Below are positions 66 through 60,691 of a DNA stretch of 64,000 nucleotides, in pieces. The notes beneath the pieces were generated by a model. The model did not search any database and was not told where the DNA came from. It saw nothing but the letters and a program-made list of their open reading frames with translations. The DNA lies in IMG/VR virus record IMGVR_UViG_3300001533_000699; one strand, given 5' to 3'. Source of the DNA: a virus. The first letter of the stretch is position 1; each line of letters opens with the position of its first letter. A program made the translations under genes and the position numbers.

Positions 66-775
66 GTGCAAAAATTCCTCCTTATAGACTCTATTATGCT
101 TCATATTGATACAAGTTGTGGCTACTATAGTGAGGACTTAACCTGTGTGAGTAATCTGGCGTAATGAAAGAGGGACTAACACGTGTGATTATGTTCTGTG
201 TCGTTGATGTACGGTAGACCACGACAACCTTCCCTGCTTATACTTAACGTAAGGCGTAGCGTGTACGTAGACCTATATCTAACGGTATCATCGAGTGCAT
301 TTGACTTGCCTATATCTATAAATAGGAATTTCATGTGTGTCTGCCCCACGCTTTTATGTTAAAAACAAAGGTAGCGCCGTCATCGCAGACCGACAACCAA
401 AAAGATGGACTGTATTATGTTAAGCGAGCCCGACAGAGTAGAGACAGTGGTCTCTAACTGGCATCGCTACTCGGCTTCAGGGTATCGTCACGGTAACCCG
501 CTACTCCCATCCATCGCCCCCAACGCAAACTCTTTACTCATATATTTTTTAGCCTGTTGAGGTAGGCTACTCTATTATACGCCTCACACCACCCGTTTGT
601 CAACCACTAACCCAGATTTGTACCAAAGTGTAACACATCCGAACACAACGTACGGTTTCGAACACCGTTTTTAGGTAAACCCCCCCTCTCAGAGACACAA
701 TGTTGCGTAATTGGTACAAAAAGTGGCTAATTTAATGCTATTTTGACACGTTAAGCGTTAAATTCGCCGCATCTC

Positions 776-803
776 TTGACTTTTTCGAAATTTATGATAA
801 AAT
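776..803 (+). promoter_or_regulatory. sigma70-type promoter TTGACT-N16-TAAAAT
   Basis: Consensus-like hexamers with the 16-nt spacer seen throughout the window. Confidence 0.55.
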
Positions 804-1224
804 ACGGGTAAGAACTCGAAAAAACCTGTGATATTACGTAAGTCCTTACTGTGTAAGGGTTAAACGAGCCGTGATATATCATGGAGGGCAGTAGTCTTGC
901 TATGCATGGGGCTCCTGCACCCAATTTCCTAGCGAAAAAATCCCCCCACCCCACCAACTCACCCCATAAGGGCTTACAACACTATTTGCTTGTTCTTCTT
1001 AGTGTTTTTGGTTGTTTTCTTATGGTGTTTTTGAGTACATATACCACAAATAACAAAAAAAATAGAATAATAACCACAATACAATTCACACTACGAACAC
1101 TCAATACAAACACCGCTTTCACAACGTTAAGCAGGGAATATCCCACTCACAACACATCATAACGCTTGTTATTCCTATGAAATAGGCAGAAATACAAAAC
1201 AGCGTATTTAAGAAATAGAAAACC

Positions 1225-1512
1225 ATGAAAATATGGCTAGATGACGAAAGAGCCGCCCCTCCTGGGTGGATACATGTGAAAAATGTAGTAGAAGCCATTA
1301 GTCTTTTGCAAACAGAACAAGTTGAGGAAATTAGCCTTGACAATGACCTCGGTCATCAAATGAAAGAAGGGCGTGAAGTCGCTCGATACATCGAAGAGGC
1401 GGCGATTCGTGGAATAATGCCACGCATCAAGATACACGTGCACACAGCCAATCCTGTGGCTCGTCAATACATGTTGGCTGCTATTCGTAACGCAGAAAAG
1501 GCTTGGGGATAA
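1225..1512 (+). CDS. cyclic-phosphate processing receiver-domain protein
   Basis: KIWLDDER..PPGW, EISLDNDLG, HTANPVA motifs typical of this stand-alone receiver family linked to RNA repair. Confidence 0.8.
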   Translation: MKIWLDDERAAPPGWIHVKNVVEAISLLQTEQVEEISLDNDLGHQMKEGREVARYIEEAAIRGIMPRIKIHVHTANPVARQYMLAAIRNAEKAWG

Positions 1513-1921: not shown

Positions 1922-1944
1922 CTCTAGCCACACCTTCCCTGCTT

Positions 1945-2457
1945 ATGAACATTTTTGCACTTGACAGAAATCCACGTATTGCCGCCCAATGTCATTGTGA
2001 TGTGCATGTACGCAAGATGACCGTAGAGTCTGCTCAGATACTATGCACCGTTAATCACTTATATGGAACCTACGACAACATTCCGTATAAGTCCACACAT
2101 GTGCACCATCCGTGTGTTAAATGGGCATGTGAGTCTCAACAGAACTATAACTGGTTATGTGAGCTAGGAATCGGGCTTGCTAAAGAGTTCACGTTTAGGT
2201 TTGGACGCTTCCATAAAACCGAGAGCGTATTATACTGGTGTAGGCACCATAACCCGTGTCCTTTTAATCGTACGCTAGGTACATCGCAGCACTTTGCCTT
2301 ATGTATGCCAGAGCGGTGGCGTGGAGAAGATGGAGTATCTTCTTATCGTAGATATTATGCGGCAGAAAAGGCGGATATTGCTAAGTGGACTAAAAGAAGT
2401 AAACCGCCGTGGTGGCTCAGATATAAGATGTTGTACTATTACCCAAATAAATCATGA
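1945..2457 (+). CDS. pyrimidine-dimer DNA glycosylase / endonuclease V-like protein
   Basis: MNIFALD.NP..AA..HCD.HV.KM..ESAQ.L, YK.TH..HPC..W, YR.YY motifs. Confidence 0.85.
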   Translation: MNIFALDRNPRIAAQCHCDVHVRKMTVESAQILCTVNHLYGTYDNIPYKSTHVHHPCVKWACESQQNYNWLCELGIGLAKEFTFRFGRFHKTESVLYWCRHHNPCPFNRTLGTSQHFALCMPERWRGEDGVSSYRRYYAAEKADIAKWTKRSKPPWWLRYKMLYYYPNKS

Positions 2458-2563: not shown

Positions 2564-2565
2564 AA

Positions 2566-5391: not shown

Positions 5392-6036
5392 ATGCTTAGA
5401 ATCATTGGCGACATACACGGCAAACAAGAAGCATATAGTGAATTGGCGCGTGAGGTCAAGCACAGTGTTCAAGTCGGAGATATGGGTCTTAATTACACTG
5501 TGTTAACTGATTCAGTCAACGCAGAACATCATCGTTTTGTACCAGGAAACCATGACAACTACGACAACCTTCCTGCTCATGCGTTTAAGGACGATTACAG
5601 CATGACGGCTTTGTGCGGTATTCCGTTTTTGTATGTAAGAGGCGCATATTCTATAGATAAAGCGTTTCGTACTCTAGGTATAAGTTGGTGGGGTAATGAA
5701 GAGATTTCATGGCAATCAGGATTAAGTCTTATACAATATGCGTCGAGCTATAAACCTTCACTGATTATATCACACGATTGTCCGTATTGCGTATATTCAT
5801 ATGTACTTACTAATGAAGATAAGTGGAGACAGTCGAGAACTGCTCAAATACTAGACGCATTGTTTAAGGCACATCAACCAGATGTTTGGGTGTTTGGTCA
5901 CCATCATAAAGATATTGTGTTCAAATATCCAAATACCAAAACTACATTTGTGTGTCTTGACGAACTGTCTTATGTAGACTATCCATCATTACAGATACAC
6001 CGAGCTGTTCATTTTTTAACACATTTACAGGAGTAA
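5392..6036 (+). CDS. calcineurin-like metallophosphoesterase
   Basis: GDIHG, GDMG, GNHD, SHD, FGHHH motifs. Confidence 0.9.
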   Translation: MLRIIGDIHGKQEAYSELAREVKHSVQVGDMGLNYTVLTDSVNAEHHRFVPGNHDNYDNLPAHAFKDDYSMTALCGIPFLYVRGAYSIDKAFRTLGISWWGNEEISWQSGLSLIQYASSYKPSLIISHDCPYCVYSYVLTNEDKWRQSRTAQILDALFKAHQPDVWVFGHHHKDIVFKYPNTKTTFVCLDELSYVDYPSLQIHRAVHFLTHLQE

Positions 6037-6378: not shown

Positions 6379-6937
6379 ATTTGACAGGCACTTACGACAA
6401 CGTGGTTTAAGACCACAGTATCAGTACTACAAAACTGAGTGTCTGCCAAACAATCATATTGAAGAGCATGTTGTATTTCCATTTGTGATGCCGGGCGGTA
6501 GATATGTAGGACATCAACGGTATTTTTGGCGTAAACCTAAATTACGTAATAATGATGAGCAGGGAAGGTATGTATCTACTTTTCTCCCTGAATACAATCT
6601 TACTGCGTTTTATGGGTGGCCGCAATGTCGTGGTGTTGGCCCGTTGTTTGTCACGGAAGGAATCTGGGACAGTATACGTGTTAGTAACTGTGGTTTTGAT
6701 TGTATTGCTTTACTATGTAATAGTCCTAATATACAATTACGTAAATATATTAGGTTATTAGCTAACGGCGCGGTAATTGTGGCATTGATAGATAAAGATG
6801 AGAATAAGGCTGGAGAACAATTAGCTAGTTCATTTGACTTTAGTTTTGAGCCAGCACATGGATATGTAGACTTCAACGATATGCCGCAAGAAGTCTGTGA
6901 ATTGCGTATGCTAGAAATTATGGGAGAACTTTTGTGA
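6341..6937 (+). CDS. TOPRIM-domain primase-like protein (start probably 6371)
   Basis: LFVTEGIWD, DKDE.KAG, DFND TOPRIM motifs. Confidence 0.75.
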   Translation: MLFHTSNNFKMNEFDRHLRQRGLRPQYQYYKTECLPNNHIEEHVVFPFVMPGGRYVGHQRYFWRKPKLRNNDEQGRYVSTFLPEYNLTAFYGWPQCRGVGPLFVTEGIWDSIRVSNCGFDCIALLCNSPNIQLRKYIRLLANGAVIVALIDKDENKAGEQLASSFDFSFEPAHGYVDFNDMPQEVCELRMLEIMGELL

Positions 6938-7297: not shown

Positions 7298-8251
7298 ATG
7301 ATTAAAGATGCGATATATCTACCAAGCGGACGCATTTTCTTAAGTGAAGTAGATGGCTATTTGATTGAATCTACGGAAATGCGCGACGTATCTGTAGATG
7401 GCAAACATAGTAAAGTACGTGAATCTACAGATGTACAAGAAATATGGAAACATCTTGTACCCTACAGTAAAAAGTGGCTATTAACTGTTAGTACCCAGCG
7501 AGGATGCACACATAATTGCCAATTTTGCGATGTTGCAAATTTACCCTTCAAAGGCAACCTTACTAGACAACAAATTGAACAACAGGTTTATGACATTTTG
7601 CTTGCATCGCCGTATGTTAAATATAGCGAGAAAGTAAAAATTGGTTTTGCTAGAATGGGAGAACCGGCATGGAATGTCTCCAATGTTTTAGGCGCAATGT
7701 TGAGTTTAGATAGTATTGCGAATTCTTTAGATAGAGACTTTAAGTGGTTACCGTGTTTTAACTCTATTCTGCCACGCAAAGCTCCATGTCTAGAACAAGT
7801 CATAGATTTTAAGGAAAGTGTTTGTGGTGGGCGGCTACACCTTCAAGTTTCCTGTAATTCAACTAATGAGGATAAGCGGAGTGAACTGTTTGGCGGAGCA
7901 GACGTTCTATCTCTTGATGAAATTGTTCATATCGTTAATCAAAAAAAGATTACTAATAGAACTGTGACATTGAACTTCATAGTGATGGATGGGGTTGAAG
8001 TGTCTGTTACTAAACTAAAGAAAATGGGATTGAATGGAGATAAGTTTACTGTTAAGCTTATTCCTCTAAATAAAACTGTTAATTCAGAACATAATGATTT
8101 ACACGCTTATGCTAATTACTCTAATTATGACAAGCTTGTTGATTTGAAGAATAAATTTGAGCAGGAAGGTGTTCCTGTAGTAATGGACGCCATTGCGAAG
8201 TGTGAAGAAGCAGGCTTATGCTGTGGTCAACTTGCACAAATATATCTATAG
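7298..8251 (+). CDS. RlmN/Cfr-like radical SAM RNA methyltransferase
   Basis: STQRGCTHNCQFC (CxxxCxxC), RMGEP (cf. MGMGEP), LIPLN, C-terminal CGQL. Confidence 0.8.
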   Translation: MIKDAIYLPSGRIFLSEVDGYLIESTEMRDVSVDGKHSKVRESTDVQEIWKHLVPYSKKWLLTVSTQRGCTHNCQFCDVANLPFKGNLTRQQIEQQVYDILLASPYVKYSEKVKIGFARMGEPAWNVSNVLGAMLSLDSIANSLDRDFKWLPCFNSILPRKAPCLEQVIDFKESVCGGRLHLQVSCNSTNEDKRSELFGGADVLSLDEIVHIVNQKKITNRTVTLNFIVMDGVEVSVTKLKKMGLNGDKFTVKLIPLNKTVNSEHNDLHAYANYSNYDKLVDLKNKFEQEGVPVVMDAIAKCEEAGLCCGQLAQIYL

Positions 8252-8266: not shown

Positions 8267-8494
8267 ATGAAGGCAAAAATTAAGTGTGGTGTATGTGGCA
8301 ACGAGATTGACATTACTCAACAAATAGATGCTGATGTGTTATTGCTTGCTGATAAGGCCGAACAAGACAATAAAGAGCTGCTTGAATTACTGGACCGCTT
8401 TCGTTCAGAAGTAAGGCCATATTGTCGTCCAGGTTTTGTGAAGTATGATGTGTTTCCAGTCTTCAAGGAGGTAGACGCATTGTTTTCAAAGTAA
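8267..8494 (+). CDS. hypothetical protein
   Basis: CxxC N-terminus. Confidence 0.5.
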   Translation: MKAKIKCGVCGNEIDITQQIDADVLLLADKAEQDNKELLELLDRFRSEVRPYCRPGFVKYDVFPVFKEVDALFSK

Positions 8495-8826: not shown

Positions 8827-8855
8827 ATTAGCAGTGCAGACAACCTTCCCTGCTT

Positions 8856-9392
8856 ATGGAGCCACCGACCACAATGTCAGAGACTGTAATTGTCAATCGT
8901 ACTGACGATACACAAATCGAAAAGTGGGCCAAACAAGCGCTCATTATGTTGGATTGCGATATTCGCACAGTGCGTATCGAGTGGAATGGACGATTTACTC
9001 GCCGTATGGGCGATGCTGGTCTGAAAAACGGTATTGGTGTTGTACGTCTGTCTAAGCCGTTGTGGCCACGAGCAACTGAAATGGACCGCCAACAAACCGT
9101 TGTGCATGAAGTGTGTCATGTAGTACAGCGATATAGACATGGGCGATTAGATACTCCGCACGGTAAAATATGGCAGCATTATATGAAAACGTGTGGGTTT
9201 CAACCACGGCGTTGTCACAGTGTTAACCTAGAAGGTTTACGACGTAATATTCCGAAATACGCTGCGAGGTGTTCATGTCAGACACATCAAATCGGACTAA
9301 TCAGAGCACGGCGAATGATGGCTGGAATTTCGTCGTATAGATGTAAGAAATGCAATACACAATTGACTTTAATTGAGGGGTATGACACATGA
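8856..9392 (+). CDS. SprT-like zinc metalloprotease
   Basis: HEVCH, PHGKIW, C-terminal CxC and CxxC zinc ribbon. Confidence 0.85.
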   Translation: MEPPTTMSETVIVNRTDDTQIEKWAKQALIMLDCDIRTVRIEWNGRFTRRMGDAGLKNGIGVVRLSKPLWPRATEMDRQQTVVHEVCHVVQRYRHGRLDTPHGKIWQHYMKTCGFQPRRCHSVNLEGLRRNIPKYAARCSCQTHQIGLIRARRMMAGISSYRCKKCNTQLTLIEGYDT

Positions 9393-10510
9393 GTAAGATG
9401 ATTGTAAAAATCAAGCATATAGACGCAATCACGCCACATAATAACGCCGACGCCTTAGAAATCGCACATCTAGGTGCGTGGACCACATGCGTTAAGAAGG
9501 GTGTGTTTAATGTTGGTGATTTAGTTGTGTTTCTACCCCCCGACGCTATTCTACCGAAGTCTTTGCATCAATTTCTTGGTATCACTAAGTATTGTAGTGA
9601 AATGCCAAAGTATAGTGAAGATTATAAGCAGGGAAGGTGTCGTGTTAGAGCTGCTAGGTTGAGGGGTGAGAGGTCATTTGGTACTTTAATGACGAAGAAT
9701 GACCTATTAAAGTATGTTATGACTTACACCCCAGAAAAGTGTACTAGTTATGGTTTTATGGTCGATGATGACGTTGCTGATTTGCTTGGCATTACAAAAT
9801 ATACACCGCCAGAAAAGATTAAGAGTGGAGATGCTGCGCCAGAGAATGCATTGTTTCATCAATATACTGACATAGAACGCTATCAGAATTATCCGAAAGC
9901 AATTGATGAGGGTGAGCATGTTGTTATGCTTGAGAAGGTTCACGGCACCAACTCTCGTATTGGGTTAGTGATGTCTAATGATGATTTGGTGTGGATGTGC
10001 GGTAGTCATCGTTCTAACCGCAAACAGTTTGATGCTACTGGCGACTTATCATTGTACTGGAAACCTTTGACTTGCAATGTCGTAGATATGTTAACCGAGA
10101 TACAAAACGATACTAAAGCCGTGTCGGTTGTTTTGTTCGGAGAGATTTACGGCAGAGGCATTCAGGATATGCAATATGATGGCAATATTTCATTTGCCGC
10201 ATTTGATATCTCTGTTAATGGACAGTATCTTGATTGGCCTGCTGTGGTGAAAATGTGCGATAAACATTCCGTATCTATGGTTCCAGTTGTTTATGAAGGT
10301 CCGTTTAGTGAAGCAATACTAATGGAGCACACTGATGGACCAACTATCGTATGTGAGCAGCCGATATCCAAATTCAAAGGTAGAGAAGGGGTGGTTGTAA
10401 AACCGATAGTAGAACGACAATCTCAGTATTTGCCGAATCATGGCAGGGTGATACTTAAGAGTGTTAGTGTGGACTACCTAAACAGACGCGGTGGAACAGA
10501 TAACGCATGA
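9389..10510 (+). CDS. RNA ligase, DRB0094/Rnl5-like family with N-terminal OB-type domain
   Basis: H.NADALE N-terminal domain, EKVHGTN (motif I), FGEIYG, AAFDI, REGVVVK, ILKSVS. Confidence 0.88.
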   Translation: MSKMIVKIKHIDAITPHNNADALEIAHLGAWTTCVKKGVFNVGDLVVFLPPDAILPKSLHQFLGITKYCSEMPKYSEDYKQGRCRVRAARLRGERSFGTLMTKNDLLKYVMTYTPEKCTSYGFMVDDDVADLLGITKYTPPEKIKSGDAAPENALFHQYTDIERYQNYPKAIDEGEHVVMLEKVHGTNSRIGLVMSNDDLVWMCGSHRSNRKQFDATGDLSLYWKPLTCNVVDMLTEIQNDTKAVSVVLFGEIYGRGIQDMQYDGNISFAAFDISVNGQYLDWPAVVKMCDKHSVSMVPVVYEGPFSEAILMEHTDGPTIVCEQPISKFKGREGVVVKPIVERQSQYLPNHGRVILKSVSVDYLNRRGGTDNA

Positions 10511-15540: not shown

Positions 15541-16449
15541 ATGTCTATGGTTCACAGTCTAATTTCTGGCGATGGTACAATCTGTTTGGTAGTCGATGGT
15601 CGTCACCATACAGTAACAGCTACGCATCCAGCGTATCGTGAAATTCGAAGATTGATTACAACCCGACCACTCAACGAACAAGCATTATTGGACCTAATTG
15701 ATATTCCACAGTCAATTAACCATATTATGCAGGGAAGGGTGCGTGTCGATTTGGAGGCCGGTAAGGTTTGGTATAACGACACTGAATTTCATGACGAAGC
15801 GTTCTGTGGCCGTATCCTGCGGCTTATGGGGGAGGGGCAAGATGTTCAATATATGCTCAACTTCTTGAATAACCTTGGGCAAAACCCTGAATTTCGTGCT
15901 ATTATGGAAACCTTCAAGTTCATCTGTAATGAAGGCATGCCAATCACTCCAGATGGTTGTTTTCTTGGATATAAAGGTGTGCGCGAAGACTATTATGATG
16001 AATGGTCTGGGCAGATTGATAACACCCCCGATGGTCGTCGCGTTGATATACCAAGAGAAAATGTTTGTAATAACCCAAGTAATGGTTGTGCATCAGGACT
16101 ACACGTTGGTTCTTATAATTATGCTAAGGGTTGGGGCCATACTGTGGTATTGGTAAAGGTGAATCCGAAGGATGTCGTTAGCGTACCAAATCACGAATGT
16201 GAGAAGATGCGTGTATGCGGCTATTGGGTTATCAAGGAGTTTGGTCCTGGTAATTCTTCTCAACCTGCATTGCGGGGTGAAGTCTACGACTCGACCGGTA
16301 AACGGGTGCCTGGAAGTTTGTTTTCTGAACTTGGCCAGTTTGATAATGATGTCAACTCGCATTGGGATGAAGAAGAAGGTCGTACCTATAGTGAGTCATT
16401 GATTGATGATATGGATGACGACGATGATTGGGATTATGAAGACGACTAG
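15541..16449 (+). CDS. rIIB: rIIB-like protein
   Basis: NP......F.F, PITPDGCFLGYK.V, C.SGLHVG...YA, KVNPKDVVSVP, KMRVC.Y. Confidence 0.88.
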   Translation: MSMVHSLISGDGTICLVVDGRHHTVTATHPAYREIRRLITTRPLNEQALLDLIDIPQSINHIMQGRVRVDLEAGKVWYNDTEFHDEAFCGRILRLMGEGQDVQYMLNFLNNLGQNPEFRAIMETFKFICNEGMPITPDGCFLGYKGVREDYYDEWSGQIDNTPDGRRVDIPRENVCNNPSNGCASGLHVGSYNYAKGWGHTVVLVKVNPKDVVSVPNHECEKMRVCGYWVIKEFGPGNSSQPALRGEVYDSTGKRVPGSLFSELGQFDNDVNSHWDEEEGRTYSESLIDDMDDDDDWDYEDD

Positions 16450-20278: not shown

Positions 20279-20833
20279 ATGATTAATAGATTAAATGGAA
20301 TGCGATGCTATCTGATTGGTGCTATGGACCGCACTGATGATGGTGGTGTACAGTGGCGTGAAGACATTAAAGAATTCCTACATACTAAAGGGGTAGTTGT
20401 ACTAGACCCATGTGACAAACCTATTGACATAGGACAAGAACATATAGAAGACAGAAGTGTGAGACAAACACTGAAAAAGTCTGGACAATATAACTCGCTA
20501 GCAAAAACGATGAAGACAATTCGTGTCATAGACTTACGTATGACAGACATGGCAGACTTCGTGATAGTTCACATTGACACAGACGTACATGCTTGTGGTA
20601 CATACGAAGAATTGTTTTGGGCAAACCGCTTGAAAAACCCTGTACTTATCGTTTGTAAGCAGGGAAAGGCTCAGTGTCCCGATTGGTTGTTCGGGGTCGT
20701 ACCGCACAGGCATATATTTGATAATTTTGAGCAGTTACGTGAGTATTTGGAGTATGTTGCACATAGTTATAGTGTATATCATATGCGTAGGTGGACTTTC
20801 TTTAACTACGAGAAATTAAAATGCCCTATATAA
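20279..20833 (+). CDS. nucleoside 2-deoxyribosyltransferase-like protein
   Basis: YLIGAM....G..WR, DP, D......D, GT.EE...A, PV. Confidence 0.7.
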   Translation: MINRLNGMRCYLIGAMDRTDDGGVQWREDIKEFLHTKGVVVLDPCDKPIDIGQEHIEDRSVRQTLKKSGQYNSLAKTMKTIRVIDLRMTDMADFVIVHIDTDVHACGTYEELFWANRLKNPVLIVCKQGKAQCPDWLFGVVPHRHIFDNFEQLREYLEYVAHSYSVYHMRRWTFFNYEKLKCPI

Positions 20834-23586: not shown

Positions 23587-23841
23587 ATGAGAAGGGTTGG
23601 TATAGCGTTTATCGTTATTGCTATAATTGTGTTTTTGTTTAATAAGCAGGCAAGTGCACCTAGACCACCAATACCGCCAGATAATGAAGAAGAACAAGTA
23701 GTAGATTTTGAAAAGTGGTTTCAACATCACCAACTAGAATGCGATATATGTGAACCTGGATGGCCACCACGCTTATGTACAGAAGCATGGAATAAACTTA
23801 ATGCTCAAAGACTCCACCAAAAGGAGATAGAAAATGAATAA
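23587..23841 (+). CDS. membrane-anchored hypothetical protein
   Basis: N-terminal TM segment; CxxC. Confidence 0.55.
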   Translation: MRRVGIAFIVIAIIVFLFNKQASAPRPPIPPDNEEEQVVDFEKWFQHHQLECDICEPGWPPRLCTEAWNKLNAQRLHQKEIENE

Positions 23842-24541
23842 AATATTAGGAGTTACGATATTGTTTGGTTTAGTGGTTCTGATGCTGTTTGGTCCTAGTC
23901 TTAGTTCAACACATGTAGGCGATACTCCAGACAACAACACCACACAAATAGACCTTGGTACACCACAAGTTGCTGAAGAACAACCAGAAACCTTGAATAC
24001 AACAGAGACTAAAGAAGTAGTTGCTTCTATTGGCAGTATTCGCGAGATTATAAGAAACGCACAAAATGAATTACGGTTCTTTGCTAAGGCTAGACTCGTA
24101 ACACAAGAGTGGTTTACTGCTATGGCAAAGCTTACAGCAGAAGATATGCCGCAGATACAATCACACACAAATGTTATTGAAAACCGTGAGTGGGTACCAC
24201 CTCATAAACAAGTAATTTTGGTGTTCTATCAAGACGACTACTATCAAGAACAACGAATGGTGCCACAAGCACAAAAGCTAATGGATGAAGGACACTATGT
24301 ATATAGAATTCCAGCACGACGCACAGACCTATATCATCAGTACGCGGTTACACAAACGCCGATGTGGTTGGTTGTGCGAGATAAAGAAGTAATTTACCGA
24401 CATACAAAACCACCAACCTTCCCTGCTTATGAAGAACAGGTAGATGTACCCGTTAATGTTCAGGAAACACAAATATATTACACTCCATCATCTATGCAAA
24501 AATACGTCCCGTCATCATGTGGTATCGGAGGATGCAGATGA
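23834..24541 (+). CDS. exported protein with degenerate thioredoxin-like domain
   Basis: Signal peptide; LVFY...M.P...Y.V..TP..LV; C-terminal SCGIGGCR. Confidence 0.55.
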   Translation: MNKILGVTILFGLVVLMLFGPSLSSTHVGDTPDNNTTQIDLGTPQVAEEQPETLNTTETKEVVASIGSIREIIRNAQNELRFFAKARLVTQEWFTAMAKLTAEDMPQIQSHTNVIENREWVPPHKQVILVFYQDDYYQEQRMVPQAQKLMDEGHYVYRIPARRTDLYHQYAVTQTPMWLVVRDKEVIYRHTKPPTFPAYEEQVDVPVNVQETQIYYTPSSMQKYVPSSCGIGGCR

Positions 24542-29252: not shown

Positions 29253-29394
29253 CTTGACATTTGAAAAAATTGTGTTATGACAATAGCATACAACGAGGCA
29301 CCTTTCCTGCTTATGTTTGGAGTAAAACAATGACACGCAACACCTTATCCAATAGATGTAGTAATATGTATTAGTTTACAAATTAACTATCTCT

Positions 29395-35291: not shown

Positions 35292-36199
35292 TTATTACTG
35301 GTGGAACTGGATTTTTAGGTCGATATGTAACACAAGAATGTCATAAACACGATGAATTTACACACATAATGCCTTTGGGAAGCAAAGACTATGATTTGCG
35401 ACATAGCGAAGACATCAAAAAGATGTTTTATGACTGTTGTCCTGATGTTATAATTCATCTTGCTGCTCAGGTTGGTGGTATTGGCTTAAACAAAGCTGAA
35501 CCAGCAAGGCTGTTTTATGACAACGCCATTATGGGAATAGAGTTATTGCACCATGCGTGGATGGGTGAAGTAAAGAAGCTGGTAAATGTTGGCACTGTAT
35601 GCGCATATCCTAAATACACACGTACTCCATTCAAAGAGAGTGATATATGGAATGGGTATCCTGAAGAAACAAATGCGCCATATGGTCTAGCAAAAAAGAT
35701 GTTATTAGTACAAGGGCAAGCATATCGAGAGCAGTATGGGTTTAACTCCATCTATTTACTGCCTACTAATCTATATGGCCCTGGTGATAATTTTGAACCA
35801 AATAGTTCGCACGTTATTCCAGCGCTTATTAAAAAGATTTACGACGCAATTAAGCAGGGAAGGGATGCTGTTGAAGTATGGGGTACTGGAGAGGCGTCAC
35901 GAGATTTTCTATATGTTGAGGATTGCGCTAAAGGTATAGTTGAAGCAACCTTGAAATACGAGTCAGGCGACCCTGTTAATCTTGGTAGTGGTAAGACTAT
36001 GCGTATTTCTACGCTTGTGTATACAATAGCAGAACTCATGCATTACAACGGTAGTATTGTTTTTAACGCCGACAAACCAGAAGGTCAACCAGCTAGATGT
36101 TTAAATACTTCGCGTGCTAAGACATTTGGGTTTGAAGCTACAACTGATATACATACCGGCTTAGAAAAAACTATACTTTATTATCTTAGGAGGATATAG
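35267..36199 (+). CDS. fcl: GDP-L-fucose synthase
   Basis: TGGTGFLG, HLAAQVGGIG.N, C.YPK, YGLAKK, NLYGPGDNF, SHVIPALI, WGTG...R.FLYV.D. Confidence 0.93.
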   Translation: MEHPMCRVVITGGTGFLGRYVTQECHKHDEFTHIMPLGSKDYDLRHSEDIKKMFYDCCPDVIIHLAAQVGGIGLNKAEPARLFYDNAIMGIELLHHAWMGEVKKLVNVGTVCAYPKYTRTPFKESDIWNGYPEETNAPYGLAKKMLLVQGQAYREQYGFNSIYLLPTNLYGPGDNFEPNSSHVIPALIKKIYDAIKQGRDAVEVWGTGEASRDFLYVEDCAKGIVEATLKYESGDPVNLGSGKTMRISTLVYTIAELMHYNGSIVFNADKPEGQPARCLNTSRAKTFGFEATTDIHTGLEKTILYYLRRI

Positions 36200-39180: not shown

Positions 39181-39954
39181 ATGGTTGTATTTCTTATACC
39201 GGTGCGACACCCAAATAGCGCGATAGATTATAATACGACATGGCAGCTTTTAATAGATTCTTTGCGTAATATTTATCGACAAACTGACGGCGATTGGCAC
39301 GCTATAATCACGGCAAATAAAATTCTGCATATGCCGCATGATTTACCGCTAGGCAATATCACGTTTTTAACATACTCTGGGGAAGAGTGTGGTCATACTC
39401 TGAAAAAATGGAATCAACAAAAGTTCCTAAAGCACAACAAAGACAAAGCAAATAAAAGGATGTGCGGAGTCAAATACGCTAAAGAGAATCTGAATCCAAA
39501 ATGGTATTTTATGATGGATGCAGACGACTATATATCTAATGATTTAGTGGAAACCATACACACCTTCCCTGCTAATATTAAATGTGTTACAATTGAGTGT
39601 GGGGTAGTTGTAAATACTATGAACGGTGTATGTACTTTAAATAATGACTTTAATAGATGCTGTGGTACATCTATTGGTTTCAAATCACAGTTCTTACACT
39701 TACATCTACATAATCGACAACTCATGTGGGCGTTATTGGGCAAACACATATTTTGTCAAAGTGGTGCGCATATGTGGAAACGACGTAAATTAGAGGATAA
39801 ACCATACGCAACATATATGATTCATGACGATAACCACGGATTACATTTATGGGGTGCTAAGAATTTGGTCGATACACACCATCAGCCAGTTTCCAACGTA
39901 GACAAAAAACGTCTGGGAATTTTAGGGTTGACAAAAAGAAAAATCCAGCTATAA
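39181..39954 (+). CDS. GT2-like glycosyltransferase
   Basis: FLIP, S...QTD, DK..K, MMDADD, CGTS. Confidence 0.65.
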   Translation: MVVFLIPVRHPNSAIDYNTTWQLLIDSLRNIYRQTDGDWHAIITANKILHMPHDLPLGNITFLTYSGEECGHTLKKWNQQKFLKHNKDKANKRMCGVKYAKENLNPKWYFMMDADDYISNDLVETIHTFPANIKCVTIECGVVVNTMNGVCTLNNDFNRCCGTSIGFKSQFLHLHLHNRQLMWALLGKHIFCQSGAHMWKRRKLEDKPYATYMIHDDNHGLHLWGAKNLVDTHHQPVSNVDKKRLGILGLTKRKIQL

Positions 39955-42246: not shown

Positions 42247-43195
42247 GATTGATGTAGTAGACCTAACTGGTACATTGTGTTGTATCAGTAGTTATTTTAA
42301 TCCAATTGGTTGGAAAAGTAGATATGATAATTTTTGCATATTCTATGAACGCATGCTGCGTCAAAACGTCAATCTGTTAATTGGTGAAGTAGCATTACAT
42401 GATAGAGGTTTTCAACTACAAAATATTGTCAACGAAGAGCACCTAGCTTTTCAATTATGTGCACCAAATATATTGTGGCACAAAGAAAGCGTTTTGTCCT
42501 TACTATTGGGGCACCTTCCTGCTAATTGTGATAAAGTATGTTGGATAGACGCAGATATTTTAGTACAAAACAATGATTGGGTAGAACAAATAAACAATGC
42601 GCTCAATATGTATCGCGTTGTACAAGGCTTTAATTGGTGTGGAATGCTGCCTCACGGAGTAGAAGACGTTGACCGCATCGGAATTCATAGTTTTCCCACG
42701 GGTTTTCAAGACTGTCATAAATGCTATAGCTACATCAATGGCTTATTGAATAATGAACCGAAGTATTATAGTGGACAGCCAGGAATAATGTGGGCAGCTC
42801 GACGCTCTGTGTTAGAACGCATAGGATTCTATAAACATTGCGTCCTTGGTGGGGCAGACTATCTAACGGCGCGAGCGATGGCATACAAACATTATGACCC
42901 AAAAACATGTGAATTATTTAGTAAATTTAATTTAGCAACATATTTTCCATGGGCGCAAAACTGTGCGGAACAAGTAGACTTTAGCATTAACTATGTGTCT
43001 AATGTGGTATATCATTTGTATCATGGTCATATAGACGATAGAGGACACAACCATAGGCTACAACTACTTCGTGAGCTAGAGTTTGACCCACGAATAGATA
43101 TCAATGAACTAGAGAATGGTCTATGTAACTTCACAGATATTGGGGAAAGATTCATGGAGCCAACCAAACAGTTTTTTATACAAAGGAAAGAATAA
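42185..43195 (+). CDS. GT-A fold glycosyltransferase-like protein
   Basis: YFNP, WHKE..L, WIDAD, PG..WA.RR, LGG.D, HLYHG. Confidence 0.7.
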   Translation: MPIILPQNQQLVQTRQMTTPKIDVVDLTGTLCCISSYFNPIGWKSRYDNFCIFYERMLRQNVNLLIGEVALHDRGFQLQNIVNEEHLAFQLCAPNILWHKESVLSLLLGHLPANCDKVCWIDADILVQNNDWVEQINNALNMYRVVQGFNWCGMLPHGVEDVDRIGIHSFPTGFQDCHKCYSYINGLLNNEPKYYSGQPGIMWAARRSVLERIGFYKHCVLGGADYLTARAMAYKHYDPKTCELFSKFNLATYFPWAQNCAEQVDFSINYVSNVVYHLYHGHIDDRGHNHRLQLLRELEFDPRIDINELENGLCNFTDIGERFMEPTKQFFIQRKE

Positions 43196-44259: not shown

Positions 44260-44765
44260 GAGAAACAAGTGTTTGTATTAGATAGAGCACGTAAAAAAAA
44301 GACGGTCCATAAGCTACAATCCAAACAAATAGCAGAAATTATCGACAATAATGGTAAACATAGCATTATAAGAGACCATCAAAATAAACACTGGATGACA
44401 GTTCCTAGTGCTAGCGGCGTAGATTTATATCCAATGGAACAAATATAGGAGAATACATATGTCTGTAGAATTTCCAAGAGATGACATTGTAACCGAAGTG
44501 ATTAGCCCTAGTGTAGGGCAAGAAAATGAATTGGAAGCTGGCGAATATATAATTATTGTACCCGAAGGTCAGAAAGCTATAATTAGATATGAAAAAATCT
44601 AATGATATACCAGAATGGATGAAAGAACGTACTATACATGTGATATACTTACGTGATATAGGATATGATTCAAGTACTTTATCAAATGCAACTAACAGTG
44701 ATGTAAAGAAATGGTACGAAGCAGAGAAAACTAAGCAGGGAAGCCCACCCTGCTAATTTTTCGTC

Positions 44766-48196: not shown

Positions 48197-48197
48197 T

Positions 48198-50206: not shown

Positions 50207-51153
50207 TAGAATTCAAAGACAAATATTTTCCAGTGTTAGACCATGGTTTTTGTGCACTCGTAGATTACATGGGTGACGATACAGCTATTACAAGAGCGGC
50301 ACGGTGTAGTTATGGTGCTGGTAATAGAAGTGTATCTGATGACCGAGGTTTAATACGCACATTGATAAGGGAAAAGCATACTAGTCCATTTGAAATGTGT
50401 GAAGTTGTATTGCATGTTGGCTTACCAATATTCGTTGCGCGTCAATGGATAAGACATAGAACGGCAAGTCTAAATGAATATAGTGGTAGATATAGTATAA
50501 TGCCGTCTATATACTACACGCCAGATAATGATAGACTACAAGTGCAACACGCTAAGAATAAGCAGGGAAGTGGGCCTGTATGTATTGACGAAGACGCAAA
50601 GACCGAAATCAGCACACGGCGTGATGCGCTACGTCATTTTATTACTAACCACTATAATCAATGTCTAGAATTTGACCTTGCGCGTGAATTATCTCGTATT
50701 GACCTACCTCTTAGTACATATACTTTTTGGTATTGGAAGATTGACCTAAAAAACCTACTACATTTCTTACGGCTTAGGCTTGACCAACACGCTCAGTGGG
50801 AAATTCAACAATACGCTAAAGTCATAGCTGGTCTAGTAGCAAAGTGGGTGCCATTAACATGGGAGGCGTTTGTTGATTATGAGTTATGTAGTACAACATT
50901 CAGCAGACCAGAATTAAAAATACTTGATATTTTGTTCTACGCGCAAGAATTAGATATTGGCACATTAACAAACGAGCACATGTATTATATTCGTGGTTTA
51001 TGTGATAAAAATGGTCTTACAGGTAGAGAACAAGATACATTTATAGAAAAGCTCAAATGTCAACCAAACCTCCCAGCTCATATTGAACTAAACGTTAATA
51101 ACGCGAAGACCCCAGAATTTTACCAACAAATGATAAATCAAGGTGTAGTATGA
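50203..51153 (+). CDS. thyX: FAD-dependent thymidylate synthase
   Basis: H.SPFE, RQWIRHRTASLNEYSGRY, RELSR..LP, HAQWEI. Confidence 0.96.
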   Translation: MIEFKDKYFPVLDHGFCALVDYMGDDTAITRAARCSYGAGNRSVSDDRGLIRTLIREKHTSPFEMCEVVLHVGLPIFVARQWIRHRTASLNEYSGRYSIMPSIYYTPDNDRLQVQHAKNKQGSGPVCIDEDAKTEISTRRDALRHFITNHYNQCLEFDLARELSRIDLPLSTYTFWYWKIDLKNLLHFLRLRLDQHAQWEIQQYAKVIAGLVAKWVPLTWEAFVDYELCSTTFSRPELKILDILFYAQELDIGTLTNEHMYYIRGLCDKNGLTGREQDTFIEKLKCQPNLPAHIELNVNNAKTPEFYQQMINQGVV

Positions 51154-54695: not shown

Positions 54696-55409
54696 ATGAA
54701 GTTAATTTTTAGCGTACTAGACCGAACGGACCTATGGCCTCATTTTCAGGCTCATTATCAAGCACAAGGCGTAACTCAGTTTTTGTGTATTACTTATGGT
54801 CCTAAGCTAGACGGCGCAATAATGATTCCCGCCTCTATTTCTAGTCAATCTTTCACAGGTGTAAATGACGCCAACCAACACAATCGAGTTATTCAGCAGT
54901 TTGTGTCTCAAAATGAATGGTGTGTAATAGCAGACCTAGACGAGTTTGCTATAGTTAATGATGGAAGTTCAACATTAATAGACGCATGTACACAAGCACA
55001 AAAACAGCATTATAATGTAATTACTGGTGTAATGCTGGATAGAGTAACACGAGACGGGCACTTCCCTGCTAACTTGGAAGAGAACATATGGCAACAGTTT
55101 CCCATAGGTATGAATGTCACAGGTAGTATAGTTGGTGGGTGCATAGATAAGGTTGTGTGTTTGCAAGGAAATATTAGAGTGGGTGGTGGTCATCACTATC
55201 CACTGCAAAATGCTCATGTGCGTCAATGGCACAAGAAAATAAACGTACATCACTTTAAGTGGTGGGGTACAAACCCAACACAATTCTTTCTTAAACGTAT
55301 TCACGAAGGAAAAGAACAGCCATACACACAGGAACTAAATCGTTTGAATGAATACTTATGTAACAATAACAACCACATCGATGTATGTATAGAGCAAGAT
55401 AATGTCTAA
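54696..55409 (+). CDS. GT-A glycosyltransferase-like protein (GT2/GT92-like)
   Basis: HF..HY...GV, W...ADLDEF, DR, K, G.H, HHFKW. Confidence 0.7.
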   Translation: MKLIFSVLDRTDLWPHFQAHYQAQGVTQFLCITYGPKLDGAIMIPASISSQSFTGVNDANQHNRVIQQFVSQNEWCVIADLDEFAIVNDGSSTLIDACTQAQKQHYNVITGVMLDRVTRDGHFPANLEENIWQQFPIGMNVTGSIVGGCIDKVVCLQGNIRVGGGHHYPLQNAHVRQWHKKINVHHFKWWGTNPTQFFLKRIHEGKEQPYTQELNRLNEYLCNNNNHIDVCIEQDNV

Positions 55410-56826: not shown

Positions 56827-56827
56827 A

Positions 56828-59281
56828 ATGCCTAGTTATAAAGAAGCGCTGAAGGCTAGTTTAGAATACTTTGATGGTGATGAGTTAGCAGCAAAAGTAT
56901 TTGTAGATAAGTACGCCTTAAGAACAATTGATAATGAATTAGTTGAGCTTACACCTACAGATATGCATAGACGTATAAGTAAGGCATTGTATGATGTTGA
57001 GGTACAGAAGTTTGGACAAGACGCACTGTCTGAACAAACTATTTTTGATGCTTTGGACAAATTTCGGTACATCATTCCGCAAGGCGGCTGTATGTCAGGT
57101 ATCGGTAGTCCTAGCTTTGTCACATTGAGTAATTGCTATGTCGTAGACCCGCCAAAAGACTCTTATGGCGGCATCATGCTCACTGATGAACAAATTGTAC
57201 AGATAAGTAAGAGAAGAGGCGGTTGTGGAACCGATATTTCTAAACTACGACCAAGAGGCGCTGTAACACATAATTCTTCTCGGACAAGTACTGGTCCTGT
57301 GTGTTTCGCTGATAGATTCTCTCATTCTATTAGAGAAGTCGGCCAAAACGGAAGGCGTGGCGCGTTAATGTTAACTATGGATGTACATCATCCAGATATT
57401 CTTGATTTCATTAACAGCAAAACAGACAAAACGCGACTTACTGGTGCTAATCTATCTGTGCGTTTGTCAGACGAATTCCTTTGTGCTGTGCGTGACAATA
57501 CCACATATGAACAAAGATGGCCGGTAGATAGTGATAAGCCACAAATAAGCAGGGAAGTGTGTGCCGCTGATGTGTGGGAGGCGATTACAAAGAATGCTCA
57601 CGAACATGCAGAACCGGGGGTGTTGTTTTGGGATAAGATTCTAAGTGAAAGCCCAGCAGATTGCCATAAGGAATTCAAAACCGAGGGCGTTAACCCATGC
57701 TCAGAACTAAGTTTGTCAATCTTGGATAGTTGTCGTTTGTTGTTGATTAATGCATTTAGTTTTGTTGAAAAGCCATTTAGTAAAAAGCCTGTATTTAATT
57801 GGCGTAAGTTCTATGAATATGCTCGTATGGCCCAGCGTCTCATGGATGACATTATAGACTTGGAGCTTTACTATATTAAACGTATAATTACAAAAATACA
57901 AAACGATGACGAATCATTAGAACTCAAACACCGTGAATTAGATATGTGGTGGCGCGTATACAATAATTGTGAGACTGGTCGTCGTACTGGTACTGGCATC
58001 ACTGCGTTAGCTGATACACTTGCGGCCCTAAACCTACCATACGCATGTAAAAAGTCATTAAAGTTTGTAGACCGCATATACAAAACCTTGAAATTCGGAT
58101 GCTACACTGCATCTATTGACATGGCTAAAACTATCGGCCCATTTGCTGTGTGGAATGCAGAGAATGAAAGTCGGTGTCCATTCTTTTTGCGTTTCGCTGA
58201 AGAAACATGTGATATAGAAGATACTATTATTGATGGTAGTAGTGTAATGGCAGATATGATGAAATACGGCAGACGTAATATTGGGCTTTTAACTAGCTCG
58301 CCTGCTGGCTCAACAAGTCTAGAAACACAGACTTCATCAGCCATAGAGCCAGTATTTGCTTTGTCAACAACTAGACGAAAAAAGGGTAATCCATCAGACG
58401 AAGATTTTCGAGTTGATTTCATAGACGCAAAAGGTGACCACTGGATGGAGTTTACTGTGCTACACCCAAAACTAAAGATGTGGTGTGATATAACAGGCGA
58501 ACAAGATATAACTAAATCTCCATGGAACGGTAGTTGCGCCAAAGACTTAGACTATACATACAGAATTAAACTACAGGCTACTGCTCAACGCCACATAGAC
58601 CATAGTATATCAAGCACAATTAATCTTCCTGCTGATACCACGGTCGAACAAGTACAAAAGATATACATGCTTGCATGGGAACTTGGATGCAAAGGTGTTA
58701 CGGTATATCGTGATGGATGCAGGGATGGCGTTATTTTAGATAAGGTTGCAATTGACAAGCAAAAATCTTGTGGTACAATACAAGATAAGCGACCACGGAT
58801 ATTGCCGTGCGACGTACATCATACTTCTGTACAAGGCCAAAGCTACTTTGTTCTTGTGGGGTTGCTCGACGGGAAACCATATGAGGTTTTTGCTGGAAAA
58901 AACGGATTTATTCCTAGTAAAGTCAAATCAGGAACTATTACTAGAAAACGAAAGAACTTTTATATAGCGCATTTTGATGATACGGATGACGAATTGTCAC
59001 CTATTACTGCCGCAACTACTGAGATGGAAGAAATGATAACTAGGCTTACTTCATTAGGGTTGAGGTATGGCGCGGATATGCACAAGGTTGTGCAACAACT
59101 AGAAAAGGTTGGGGAAAGAAAGGCTATGAATAGCTTTGCTAGGGGTGTAGCTCGCGTATTGAAGAAATACATAGTAGATGGCACATCGGAGAATGAGCAG
59201 TGCCCTGAATGCAAGTCGGATATGATTAGGCAAGAAGGTTGTGTAAAATGCACTAGTTGTGCTTGGACACGATGCTTATAA
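56828..59281 (+). CDS. nrdJ: class II (adenosylcobalamin-dependent) ribonucleotide reductase
   Basis: LSNCYV, GG.GTD.S.LRP.G, GRRGALM, NPCSE, P.GS.S, SISST.N, KG.TVYRDG, C-terminal zinc finger; no nrdB nearby. Confidence 0.93.
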   Translation: MPSYKEALKASLEYFDGDELAAKVFVDKYALRTIDNELVELTPTDMHRRISKALYDVEVQKFGQDALSEQTIFDALDKFRYIIPQGGCMSGIGSPSFVTLSNCYVVDPPKDSYGGIMLTDEQIVQISKRRGGCGTDISKLRPRGAVTHNSSRTSTGPVCFADRFSHSIREVGQNGRRGALMLTMDVHHPDILDFINSKTDKTRLTGANLSVRLSDEFLCAVRDNTTYEQRWPVDSDKPQISREVCAADVWEAITKNAHEHAEPGVLFWDKILSESPADCHKEFKTEGVNPCSELSLSILDSCRLLLINAFSFVEKPFSKKPVFNWRKFYEYARMAQRLMDDIIDLELYYIKRIITKIQNDDESLELKHRELDMWWRVYNNCETGRRTGTGITALADTLAALNLPYACKKSLKFVDRIYKTLKFGCYTASIDMAKTIGPFAVWNAENESRCPFFLRFAEETCDIEDTIIDGSSVMADMMKYGRRNIGLLTSSPAGSTSLETQTSSAIEPVFALSTTRRKKGNPSDEDFRVDFIDAKGDHWMEFTVLHPKLKMWCDITGEQDITKSPWNGSCAKDLDYTYRIKLQATAQRHIDHSISSTINLPADTTVEQVQKIYMLAWELGCKGVTVYRDGCRDGVILDKVAIDKQKSCGTIQDKRPRILPCDVHHTSVQGQSYFVLVGLLDGKPYEVFAGKNGFIPSKVKSGTITRKRKNFYIAHFDDTDDELSPITAATTEMEEMITRLTSLGLRYGADMHKVVQQLEKVGERKAMNSFARGVARVLKKYIVDGTSENEQCPECKSDMIRQEGCVKCTSCAWTRCL

Positions 59282-59576
59282 TCTATTATTTAAGGAAATA
59301 AACACAATGACACACCCATTAGGAACACGTACTGATGAACCAGTTGATGAACAACTACGGGAGTTCACTATCTGGTTGGAAGGCTATCTCATCACCGGTG
59401 GTGGTGGGGGAGCAGTGTTTGAGGGAACATGGAAGGGGAAAGACTTCCGTGATGCTGTGTTGAGAATGGTGAAAGCCAAGGGTCTTGACGACAGCAACTT
59501 CAACGAGGAACGACTTTCATATTGGGGGTGTCGCTACTTCGATAATGAGGCTGACGCCCGCCGGACTTTTGGATAA
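59259..59576 (+). CDS. conserved phage hypothetical protein (start probably 59307)
   Basis: IW.EGY..TG....A......F..A, WGCR.FDNE.DAR..FG. Confidence 0.65.
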   Translation: MLGHDAYNLLFKEINTMTHPLGTRTDEPVDEQLREFTIWLEGYLITGGGGGAVFEGTWKGKDFRDAVLRMVKAKGLDDSNFNEERLSYWGCRYFDNEADARRTFG

Positions 59577-59587
59577 GGATTGAAGCG

Positions 59588-60691
59588 ATGTTTTTAGACA
59601 TGGAAAAGGTGCGACAGTTGGTCGCGGATGGTTACATATCTGTTCGTAAACATCCAAACGCTCCACTATTTATCTACAACTACACACCTAAATGTCAGTA
59701 CGAATGGCACTGGACACCTGAAACAATAGCGTGTCGCGGTCTCATATTAGACGACCGTGATAATGTGGTTGCCCGTCCATTTCCTAAGTTCTTTACGCCA
59801 GACCAATATCGTGACTTACGTAATAACGTACATAATCTCTTTGGTATTTGTTATAAAGACCTTTATCAGGGTGGATTTAAGGTTACTGAGAAGGTAGATG
59901 GCTCAATGGGTGTATTGTATCATTACAACGGAGCTTTGGCTATTGCCTCACGTGGCTCCTTTGAGTCAGAGCAAGCAGTACATGCCACCAAAATACTTCA
60001 AGAAAAATACGGCGAATTTCCTTTTGTTGTAGACCCTGATTGTACCTACATCTTTGAGATAGTGTATCCAGATAATCGTATTGTAGTTGACTATGAAGGA
60101 TTAGACGACATTGTTTTGTTAACAGTATTAAACAATGAAAATGGTGAAGATTTACCAGACCTTGTTCGTCAATGGCAAGACGCTGGTGGGCTAGCCGCAA
60201 AGTCGTATTGCTTTGCGTTTTTTGACAATGTCTTGAATGAGCAGCAAGTAGGCAGGGAAGGGTTCGTTGTGAAGTTTGATAGCGGCCTGCGAGTGAAGGT
60301 CAAGTTTGAAGACTACATACGATTACACCGTATTCTAACTAATATGTCTGCTCGTGATATTTGGGAGCGATTACGCAATAACGAACCGCTTGACGATTTG
60401 CTAGAAGTGGTTCCTGACGAATTCTATAATTGGGTTCGTAAGATTGAACGTGACCTAACAAACAAATATAGAGAGATTGAGCAACATGCACAAGGCGTGA
60501 TTCAACGTGATGTAGTTAAGTGCAACACGCCTCTTACGCGCAAGCAACTAGCTATCAAGCACAAGAACTACCAGTATAAAGGCATCATGTTTAATATGCT
60601 AGACAACAAAGAGTATGCAGACTCAATATGGCGTATTATTCGACCAAAAGCAGAATTACCGTTCTCAACGACTGACGAAAAGGATAGATAA
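59588..60691 (+). CDS. T4 Rnl1-like RNA ligase
   Basis: CRGLI, RPF.KFF, EKVDGS (motif I), A.RGSF, FEI....RIVV.Y, EGFVV, KVK...Y...H. Confidence 0.9.
   Translation: MFLDMEKVRQLVADGYISVRKHPNAPLFIYNYTPKCQYEWHWTPETIACRGLILDDRDNVVARPFPKFFTPDQYRDLRNNVHNLFGICYKDLYQGGFKVTEKVDGSMGVLYHYNGALAIASRGSFESEQAVHATKILQEKYGEFPFVVDPDCTYIFEIVYPDNRIVVDYEGLDDIVLLTVLNNENGEDLPDLVRQWQDAGGLAAKSYCFAFFDNVLNEQQVGREGFVVKFDSGLRVKVKFEDYIRLHRILTNMSARDIWERLRNNEPLDDLLEVVPDEFYNWVRKIERDLTNKYREIEQHAQGVIQRDVVKCNTPLTRKQLAIKHKNYQYKGIMFNMLDNKEYADSIWRIIRPKAELPFSTTDEKDR

Follow-up and report, generated by a model that had tools for sequence, protein, structure and literature searches.

The sequence analyzed here, referred to as the window, is a stretch of 64,000 nucleotides from the IMG/VR virus record IMGVR_UViG_3300001533_000699. 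It is part of a large novel phage, has a G+C content of ∼40% and carries all of its long open reading frames (ORFs) on the plus strand. The genes include rIIA/rIIB, a class II ribonucleotide reductase, Ro60, two RNA ligases, a polynucleotide kinase, a CCA-adding enzyme and a TnpB element, and they are accompanied by 25 tRNA genes and a tmRNA gene. Ordinary genes of the window have AAGGAG-type ribosome sites, and a strong sigma70-type early promoter family, cTTGACTTTT-N16-TAtAAT, is present. Judged by rIIA/rIIB and the tRNA bank, the phage looks lytic. No close relatives were found by megablast against phage records or by IMG/VR protein scans; the relatives compared below were syntenic metagenomic contigs reached via rIIA homologues and are given as L numbers. 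The subject of this analysis is a short word, T(A/G)AGCAGG(G)AAGG, which is dispersed over the window and had been pointed out in a first-pass annotation of the sequence.

Form and placement of the dispersed word

The window contained 21 solid and 2 doubtful copies of the word, 12 on the plus and 11 on the minus strand, and the word thus had no strand polarity although all window genes are on the plus strand. With the tRNA T-arm set aside, it was the most over-represented long k-mer of the window. The exact 13-mer TAAGCAGGGAAGG was present six times and in none of 100 dinucleotide shuffles, and matches with up to two mismatches numbered 19 against 0.8 expected. The six exact copies lay at the positions and on the strands reported in the first-pass annotation, and its statement that six such 13-mers are far above chance was borne out (0 expected). 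All nine one-mismatch copies that it had listed (6556, 15726, 20656, 29301, 39563, 44732, 50559, 57546 and 60249) were found, as were the two-mismatch copies at 1128 and 55060. The copies one base shorter, at 5568(-), 8158(+), 28548(+) and 42514(-), proved to be real and shared a GT-rich tail. The enrichment persisted against the codon-preserving shuffle that had been proposed as a check, in which synonymous codons were permuted across all ORFs while proteins and codon usage stayed unchanged: 10 in-ORF copies with at most one mismatch were present, whereas 300 shuffles averaged 0.13 such copies and never gave more than 1. Together, the dinucleotide and codon-preserving shuffles ruled out chance or a coding artefact.

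Sequence information was limited to positions 0-14, (A)TAAGCAGGGAAGG(T/G). On the motif strand, the 8 nt 3' of the word contained A at 10 of 160 positions (6% vs. 30%, P ∼1e-13), and this tail was GT-rich, frequently T(T)GTC/G. Including the A-free 8 nt, the footprint is ∼21 bp long and asymmetric. There was no second conserved element within 45 nt of the word. The short-form copies, which have one base less, read T(A/G/T)AGCAGGAAGG or TRAGCAGGAAGG and carried the same GT-rich tail as the long form. A literature search on the word itself retrieved only primers in unrelated papers, an IMG/VR motif scan with the word gave nothing beyond single chance matches, and no Rfam family matched it.

The word occurred about once per 2-3 kb, on both strands, in genes and spacers. 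For the union set of copies the gaps had a coefficient of variation of 0.63, whereas copies placed at random gave ∼0.95 (P = 0.013). The longest gap measured 6.1 kb (P = 0.03). A set of 17 copies gave P = 0.002 and a regex-defined set P = 0.18; as the P value varies with the copy set, the evidence that the spacing is somewhat more even than random is suggestive only. Strand alternation was not significant (15/22, P = 0.10). Gaps in one orientation were filled by the other, which fits a function that is indifferent to orientation, and the closest inverted pair within the window was at least 685 bp apart.

Eleven of the 18 mapped copies were inside ORFs of at least 100 aa, the four short-form copies were also in genes, and roughly two thirds of the copies were located deep within genes. 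In-gene copies on the plus strand used two frames, encoding KQGR (seven copies) or an ISRE-type peptide (two copies), and the third was unused because it would give a TAA stop; minus-strand copies in genes read FPA. The different frames (KQGR, ISRE and FPA) from which the first-pass annotation had argued for a DNA-level signal were thereby confirmed. A peptide-level motif (KQGR) was ruled out by the other frames, the opposite strand, the copies in spacers and the invariant synonymous positions.

The first-pass annotation had also emphasized two copies that abut predicted start codons. The first of these starts, at the copy 1933(-), has a genuine ATG, since a PHROG profile aligns from residue 1, and here the word replaces the ribosome site of the phrog_624 gene. 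The second, at 8856, is doubtful, and the gene was called in a relative from the next ATG, 18 nt downstream. No general rule emerged: the phrog_624 copy was missing from the orthologues in L244 and L246. A translation signal as the general role was rejected, because only the copy at 1933 truly abuts a start, it is missing in these two relatives and normal genes use AAGGAG-type sites.

Three of ∼10 early promoters had a copy beside them. At the promoters 8799 and 29263 the copy lay at ∼+10 to +22, and at the promoter 44766 it lay ∼21 bp upstream of the -35 box. A two-box promoter read by a host or phage sigma factor was rejected, as there was no second element within 45 nt and no fixed distance to gene starts, and by eye the spacing did not fit sigma54, MotA-box or ECF patterns. 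A guide or target of the TnpB omega-RNA was rejected as well; neither the word nor its complement was seen beside the element at 46865-48320, which lies outside the conserved neighborhood.

Table 1. Copies of the word in the window, with their position, strand and setting.
Copy	Position	Strand	Setting and orthologues
Exact	228..240	-	Divergent promoter region
Two mismatches, TAAGCAGGGAATA	1128..1140	+	3' end of small ORF 881-1162
Exact	1933..1945	-	Final base is the A of the phrog_624 gene ATG; no Shine-Dalgarno site
Short form, TGAGCAGGAAGG	5568..5579	-	Metallophosphoesterase gene
TGAGCAGGGAAGG	6556..6568	+	Primase-like gene; orthologue in L242, dialect spelling at the L243 site, lost from L244
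Short form	8158..8169	+	Radical-SAM gene
Exact	8844..8856	-	Leader, ∼+10 to +22 of early promoter 8799; orthologous in L242
Exact	9625..9637	+	RNA ligase gene; orthologues in six relatives, spelled according to dialect (degenerate in L245)
TATGCAGGGAAGG	15726..15738	+	rIIB; window/L242 lineage only
TAAGCAGGGAAAG	20656..20668	+	Deoxyribosyltransferase-like gene; orthologous in L242, L243 and L245
Weak, TAAGCAGGCAAGT	23643..23655	+	Apparent orthologues L242:18420 and L244:19136 (by position only)
Exact	24417..24429	-	Gene 23834-24541; orthologues in L242 and L244 with no change at synonymous positions
Short form, TAAGCAGGAAGG	28548..28559	+	
TAAGCAGGAAAGG	29301..29313	-	Leader, directly downstream of early promoter ∼29263
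Doubtful short form, TCAGCAGGAAGT	33113..33124	-	0.6 chance matches expected for the pattern
Exact	35851..35863	+	Sugar epimerase gene
TTAGCAGGGAAGG	39563..39575	-	Glycosyltransferase-like gene
Short form, TTAGCAGGAAGG	42514..42525	-	
Stem AGCAGGG/CCCTGCT and T-run (intrinsic terminator)	44732..44765	+	Abuts early promoter 44766
TAAGCAGGGAAGT	50559..50571	+	Thymidylate-synthase-like gene
TTAGCAGGGAAGT	55060..55072	-	Gene 54696-55409
TAAGCAGGGAAGT	57546..57558	+	Class II ribonucleotide reductase, frame ISRE
Doubtful short-form core, AGCAGGAAG, A-rich tail	58625..58633	-	Probably chance
TAGGCAGGGAAGG	60249..60261	+	T4 Rnl1-like RNA ligase gene, frame VGRE

Conservation and spelling of the word in relatives

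The word was a top k-mer in L242, L244 and L246 and was enriched in L243, L245 and L247. L242 (rIIA identity 67%, G+C 48%) had AGCAGGGAAG as a top 10-mer; the same sequence was a top 10-mer of L244 (54%, 43%), which also carried AGCAGGAGAGG. The forms were TGAGCAAGGAAAG in L243 (54%, 46%), T(A/G)AGCAAGGAAG in L245 (52%, 44%) and both TGAGCAGGAGG and AGCAGGAAGT in L247 (45%, 39%), and L246 (40%, 35%) had nine copies of TCAGCAGGAAGTG in 17 kb (5+/4-), all of them in genes. No coherent word was present in L248 (37%, 36%) and L249 (35%, 36%). The pooled 8-mer family TRAGCARG reached 3.3-7.8 times the third-order expectation in the seven bearers. In L248 there were 7 matches to the 5' half against 1.6 expected, but the 3' half was not shared. 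The word was therefore present in seven phages, the window included, at an rIIA identity of at least 40% and not at 37% or below (L248 and L249). At position 2069-2085 of L247 the dialect form TGAGCAGGAGGT also provides the gene that follows with its Shine-Dalgarno site (AGGAGGTAACCATG).

In the primase-like, RNA ligase, deoxyribosyltransferase-like and rIIB genes and in the gene at 23834-24541, the word was found at the same codons in several phages. At five in-gene sites compared between the window and L242/L244, codons for the same residue were identical in 34 of 41 cases (83%) within the word and in 752 of 1558 cases (48%) in the same genes outside it (Fisher P = 6e-6). Conservation of the synonymous positions at orthologous sites had been proposed as a check on the word, and this comparison upheld it. 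The minus-strand copy ACC TTC CCT GCT was invariant in three phages, while the adjacent Pro, Val and Arg codons drifted. Orthologous copies were kept down to 40% rIIA identity, and there was also turnover, with the rIIB copy confined to the window/L242 lineage and the copy in the primase gene lost in L244. Purifying selection thus acts on the nucleotide sequence of the word, on either strand and both in and outside genes.

The spelling of the word changed in two relatives, with CAG -> CAA and AGG -> AAG. At three orthologous sites L243 had GAG CAA GGA AAG where the window had (A/G)AG CAG GGA A(G/A)G, and the silent CAG -> CAA change was present at all three. The dialect A was shared by a terminator stem and a minus copy of L243. 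L245 had the L243 spelling at one orthologous site and a degenerate CAG CAA GGG AAG at another. AGCAAGG was enriched only in L243 and L245 (7 vs. ∼2.4) and AGCAGG only in the other bearers. Across the dialects the 5' half TRAGCA was constant and the purine block was variable. Such a joint respelling of an entire set of sites is what co-evolution with a reader predicts.

Some copies formed part of hairpins. The inverted half copy noted at 44732 in the first-pass annotation was confirmed as a stem, AGCAGGG/CCCTGCT, that is followed by a T-run and lies directly upstream of an early promoter. A similar stem-loop with a T-rich tract was located ahead of the rIIA promoter at L241:2551 (the same site as L242:8999). 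In L244 many copies, including most of the intergenic ones, consisted of one or both hairpin arms followed by T-runs. Several L244 hairpins were more stable on the plus strand by virtue of G-U pairs (e.g., -17.1 vs. -6.5 kcal/mol), and since this stabilization is confined to the plus strand, these hairpins are genuine intrinsic terminators. The intrinsic terminator pattern was found at 44732 and in about half of the L244 copies. The other 20 of the 21 solid copies in the window had neither a partner arm nor a T-run.

A candidate protein recognition site and its alternatives

The word is a real, selected, clade-wide DNA signal. The part of the first-pass interpretation that called it a selected DNA-level signal held under the codon-preserving null, and it agrees with the synonymous conservation, the concerted dialects and the occurrence of copies on either strand and in every open frame. 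Any of the activities listed there for a cognate factor (genome organization, segregation, packaging, injection or recombination) may apply. The reading that we favor, tentatively, is that the word and its tail are the duplex-DNA recognition site of a sequence-specific protein that is clade-specific and probably phage-encoded. Such a protein of the clade would bind one site per 2-3 kb in either orientation and might cut there as well. The balanced orientation in a genome with its genes on one strand, the conservation of copies that point either way and the absence of hairpin features or of a matching RNA family point to duplex DNA, and not RNA, as the main level at which the word acts. The balanced orientation and the rather even spacing also suit a factor that works genome-wide. 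The asymmetric footprint of ∼21 bp, with a constant anchor, a variable half and tolerance of a shorter form, suggests a protein with two contact modules. The two subsites would be the constant TRAGCA(G/A)G anchor and the variable purine block with the tail. The reader is more plausibly a protein than an RNA; copies one G shorter stand alongside the long form in the window, which argues against a base-pairing guide.

A phage-encoded reader is favored by the stable core of the word in phages of 35-48% G+C and by the single chance matches in the bacterial genomes listed. A one-genome-per-species prokaryote scan with the extended word gave at least 120 single matches in at least 120 different genomes. 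The reader may serve a task that involves the whole chromosome, for example the marking or organizing of DNA, or the provision of entry points for nicking, recombination or replication, and inverted pairs of the word may have been co-opted into the stems of intrinsic terminators. As candidates for the reader we can name, as guesses only, the HNH endonuclease at 61867-62571, the sigma-like helix-turn-helix proteins at 48316-48930 and 52459-52944 and the phrog_624 protein at 1945-2457. The HNH endonuclease is encoded by a free-standing gene, flanked by that of the polynucleotide kinase and by small ORFs, has an N-terminal zinc-ribbon-like segment and is possibly a homing enzyme or nickase.

Several points weigh against a phage protein that reads duplex DNA. 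Many L244 copies and one window copy are RNA-level terminator stems with G-U pairs, which means that part of the word family acts in RNA. How even the spacing looks varies with the copies counted (P = 0.002, 0.013 or 0.18). A rigid protein-DNA interface would not usually tolerate a one-base deletion within the site. No reader protein was recognized among the annotated proteins of the window, and the reader may instead be host-encoded. Among the possible roles we rank plain binding (marking or organizing) first and nicking second; stoperator-like silencing, priming or entry of recombination, a role in RNA and, last, a host tag come after these. The known signals nearest to the word are the nick-associated motifs of phages and the stoperators of mycobacteriophages.

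Nicking is a specific form of the favored reading, in which a phage nickase would leave localized single-strand nicks at the copies, similar to those of T5 and of tf/Rembedalsseter-like and phiKMV-like phages; we consider it unlikely, although it ranks next. To our knowledge, no short asymmetric words conserved among diverged lytic phages other than the nick-associated ones have been characterized by experiment. An HNH endonuclease is encoded in the window, and the asymmetric flank suits an enzyme that acts beside its site. Nick-associated words, such as WACTRTGAC of the Pseudomonas phages tf and Rembedalsseter, occur about once per 3.5 kb, mainly in genes and mainly, not solely, on the coding strand (PMC11780129). 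They are enriched ∼10-fold or more, are kept among relatives of little nucleotide similarity and are not tied to gene starts, and words of the tf type cluster near one genome end (PMC11780129). The conservation pattern, density (about one per 3-4 kb) and in-gene placement of the window word are alike, and so is its clade-wide enrichment, which does not extend outside the clade (seven phages vs. L248 and L249). In contrast to the clustered tf-type words, the copies in the window are spread. Moreover, the word described here has 12-13 bp plus a tail, is strand-balanced and belongs to an unrelated phage group. In L244 it forms perfect inverted pairs 8-21 bp apart (13360/13381 and 16967/16979), at which nicks at both members would produce a double-strand break, and this speaks against a nick at each and every copy.

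Operator or 'stoperator'-like sites, at which a monomeric phage repressor or silencer would block initiation or elongation by the host RNA polymerase, are an improbable alternative. The stoperator consensus reportedly differs between subclusters together with the repressor. In Cluster A mycobacteriophages, more than 20 asymmetric 13-mers per genome are bound by a monomeric repressor that has two domains for DNA binding, and stoperators are oriented with transcription and lose function when reversed (PMC9283540). The word resembles the L5 gp71-type stoperators in being an asymmetric 13-mer with 21-23 copies in 64 kb, and three window copies adjoin the early promoters 8799, 29263 and 44766. However, stoperators occupy promoters and short spacers and run with transcription, whereas the word is mostly in genes and randomly oriented (12+/11- with all genes on the plus strand). 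About two thirds of the copies are deep in genes and only 3 of ∼10 early promoters have one; furthermore, the phage looks lytic and no repressor was seen among the annotated window proteins.

On the same low footing we place a more elaborate proposal, namely a 'self' or entry mark owned by the phage. An enzyme specific to the clade would nick or prime either strand there, with the GT-rich tail as a loading zone for recombination-dependent replication, or the mark would protect the chromosome of the phage against a nuclease that the phage itself makes. If this were true, the word would be a virus-encoded counterpart of Chi or of uptake-type tags, with reader and word co-evolving into dialects.

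A role of the copies as start sites on either strand, preferred by a primase (or primase-polymerase) with sequence specificity or used in recombination-dependent replication, has a slimmer chance of being correct. The two strands are used about equally at a rather even spacing of 2-6 kb, the phage has replication genes of its own and one conserved copy is within the primase-like gene. Recombinases load preferentially on GT-rich DNA, and the tail is GT-rich and A-free. Known primase sites, on the other hand, are only trinucleotides; nothing links the word to a primase, and this logic does not extend to the copies in terminator stems.

An action of the word in RNA, either as a terminator or stabilizer stem or through pairing of sense copies with complementary copies in leaders, we judge to be just as doubtful as priming. 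In its favor, most intergenic copies of L244 are hairpin arms with T-runs and the G-U pairs of several hairpins favor the plus strand, and minus copies are present in two leaders of the window (8844 and 29301). The stem-loops at 44732 and L242:8999, with T-rich tracts just upstream of sigma70-type early promoters, are PeSL-like, and these two sites alone resemble the PeSL cassettes of T4-type phages. PeSL (promoter-early stem-loop) cassettes are composite repeats located between genes, on the flanks of variable ORFs (PMC4122927). Unlike these, nearly all solid copies of the window (∼20 of 21) stand by themselves, have no stem, T-run or promoter and are mostly in conserved genes. Both in-gene orientations are conserved at synonymous sites though the resulting RNAs have unrelated sequences, the orientation is balanced relative to transcription, and there is no Rfam match.

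A host-owned word, that is, an uptake-sequence-like or Chi-like 'self' tag read by the host and copied by phages, is very unlikely. DNA uptake sequences (DUS) and uptake signal sequences (USS) occur in both orientations, in genes and spacers, with inverted pairs as terminators and in lineage dialects, at about one per kb in competent bacteria, and the layout of the word is similar. In contrast to the DUS of Neisseriaceae and the USS of Pasteurellaceae, the word is carried by a phage clade; among the matches listed from the prokaryote species scan there was a single match per genome and no word-enriched bacterial genome. The same core is found in phages of 35-48% G+C, probably with different hosts, in which orthologous copies were long kept. 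With at least 13 specific bases plus a tail and no polarity, the word goes far beyond the polar Chi- and KOPS-type words of 5-8 nt.

Dispersed selected DNA words such as Chi, KOPS, uptake sequences, nick sites and stoperators offer a rare view of the machines that handle chromosomes. The word described here spans a deep clade of uncultured giant phages with tRNA banks and RNA-repair genes. As a genetic handle, its dialect pairs predict which reader variant binds which spelling, and from the phylogenetic boundary (at least 40% vs. at most 37% rIIA identity) the point of gain or loss of the reader gene can be predicted. Should the copies be nick or priming sites, a 50-year-old unexplained phenomenon would be extended to a new phage group and a comparative framework gained; if they are not, the reader would be a new kind of genome-wide phage DNA-binding factor.

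Other features of the window and its relatives

The early promoters were near-identical, cTTGACTTTTgaaaa-N-(TG)nTAtAAT, and were located at 65(-), 776, 3316, 8799, 13281, 15464, 25556, 26819, 29263 and 44766. As the promoter at 65 points leftward, promoters diverge from each other at the left end of the window. Downstream of the promoter at 776 there was a long C/A-rich, G-poor stretch at 900-1130 (cacaatacaattcacactacgaacactcaatacaaacacc...), which overlaps a doubtful ORF of 93 aa and may be non-coding.

The window encoded two small sigma-like proteins with a region 4 helix-turn-helix (48316-48930 and 52459-52944), and L244 had a complete ECF-type sigma factor at 8433-8915, directly upstream of rIIA. 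The window gene at 12263-12739 was considered as a diverged copy of the L244 sigma factor at the same position, and this was rejected. The TnpB element at 46865-48320 was an OrfB_IS605 protein with a Cas12f-like TNB domain and a structured 3' region. A tRNA-like T-arm that was not called by ARAGORN was present after TnpB at ∼48190-48270. A gene for a head-maturation-protease-like protein (ClpP/S49-type, 51764-52456) was situated among early and nucleotide-metabolism genes, distant from the structural genes.

Genes for RNA repair and surveillance were dense beside the tRNA bank (3743-4480, 9389-10510, 17493-19070, 21120-21411, 59588-60691 and 61001-61897). The members of this set were the CCA-adding enzyme, two RNA ligases of different families, Ro60, the tmRNA and the polynucleotide kinase. 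Nucleotide-metabolism genes at 19750-20833, 50203-51153 and 56269-59281 encoded a dUTPase, a nucleoside 2-deoxyribosyltransferase-like protein, a thymidylate-synthase-like protein, a dCMP deaminase and the class II ribonucleotide reductase with a TSCPD domain. Together with a glycosyltransferase island at 33.8-44.3 kb, these genes hint at a modified DNA base. A single-strand-binding protein gene (40261-40686) was embedded in the middle of this island of sugar enzymes.

Hint/intein or LAGLIDADG insertions were found in conserved genes of the relatives (L246 3572-5933, L245 17570-18817, L242 17224-18348 and L248 21406-22145). The RNA ligase was split by an insertion in L246 and the dUTPase in L245, while the window copies of the inserted genes were free of insertions.

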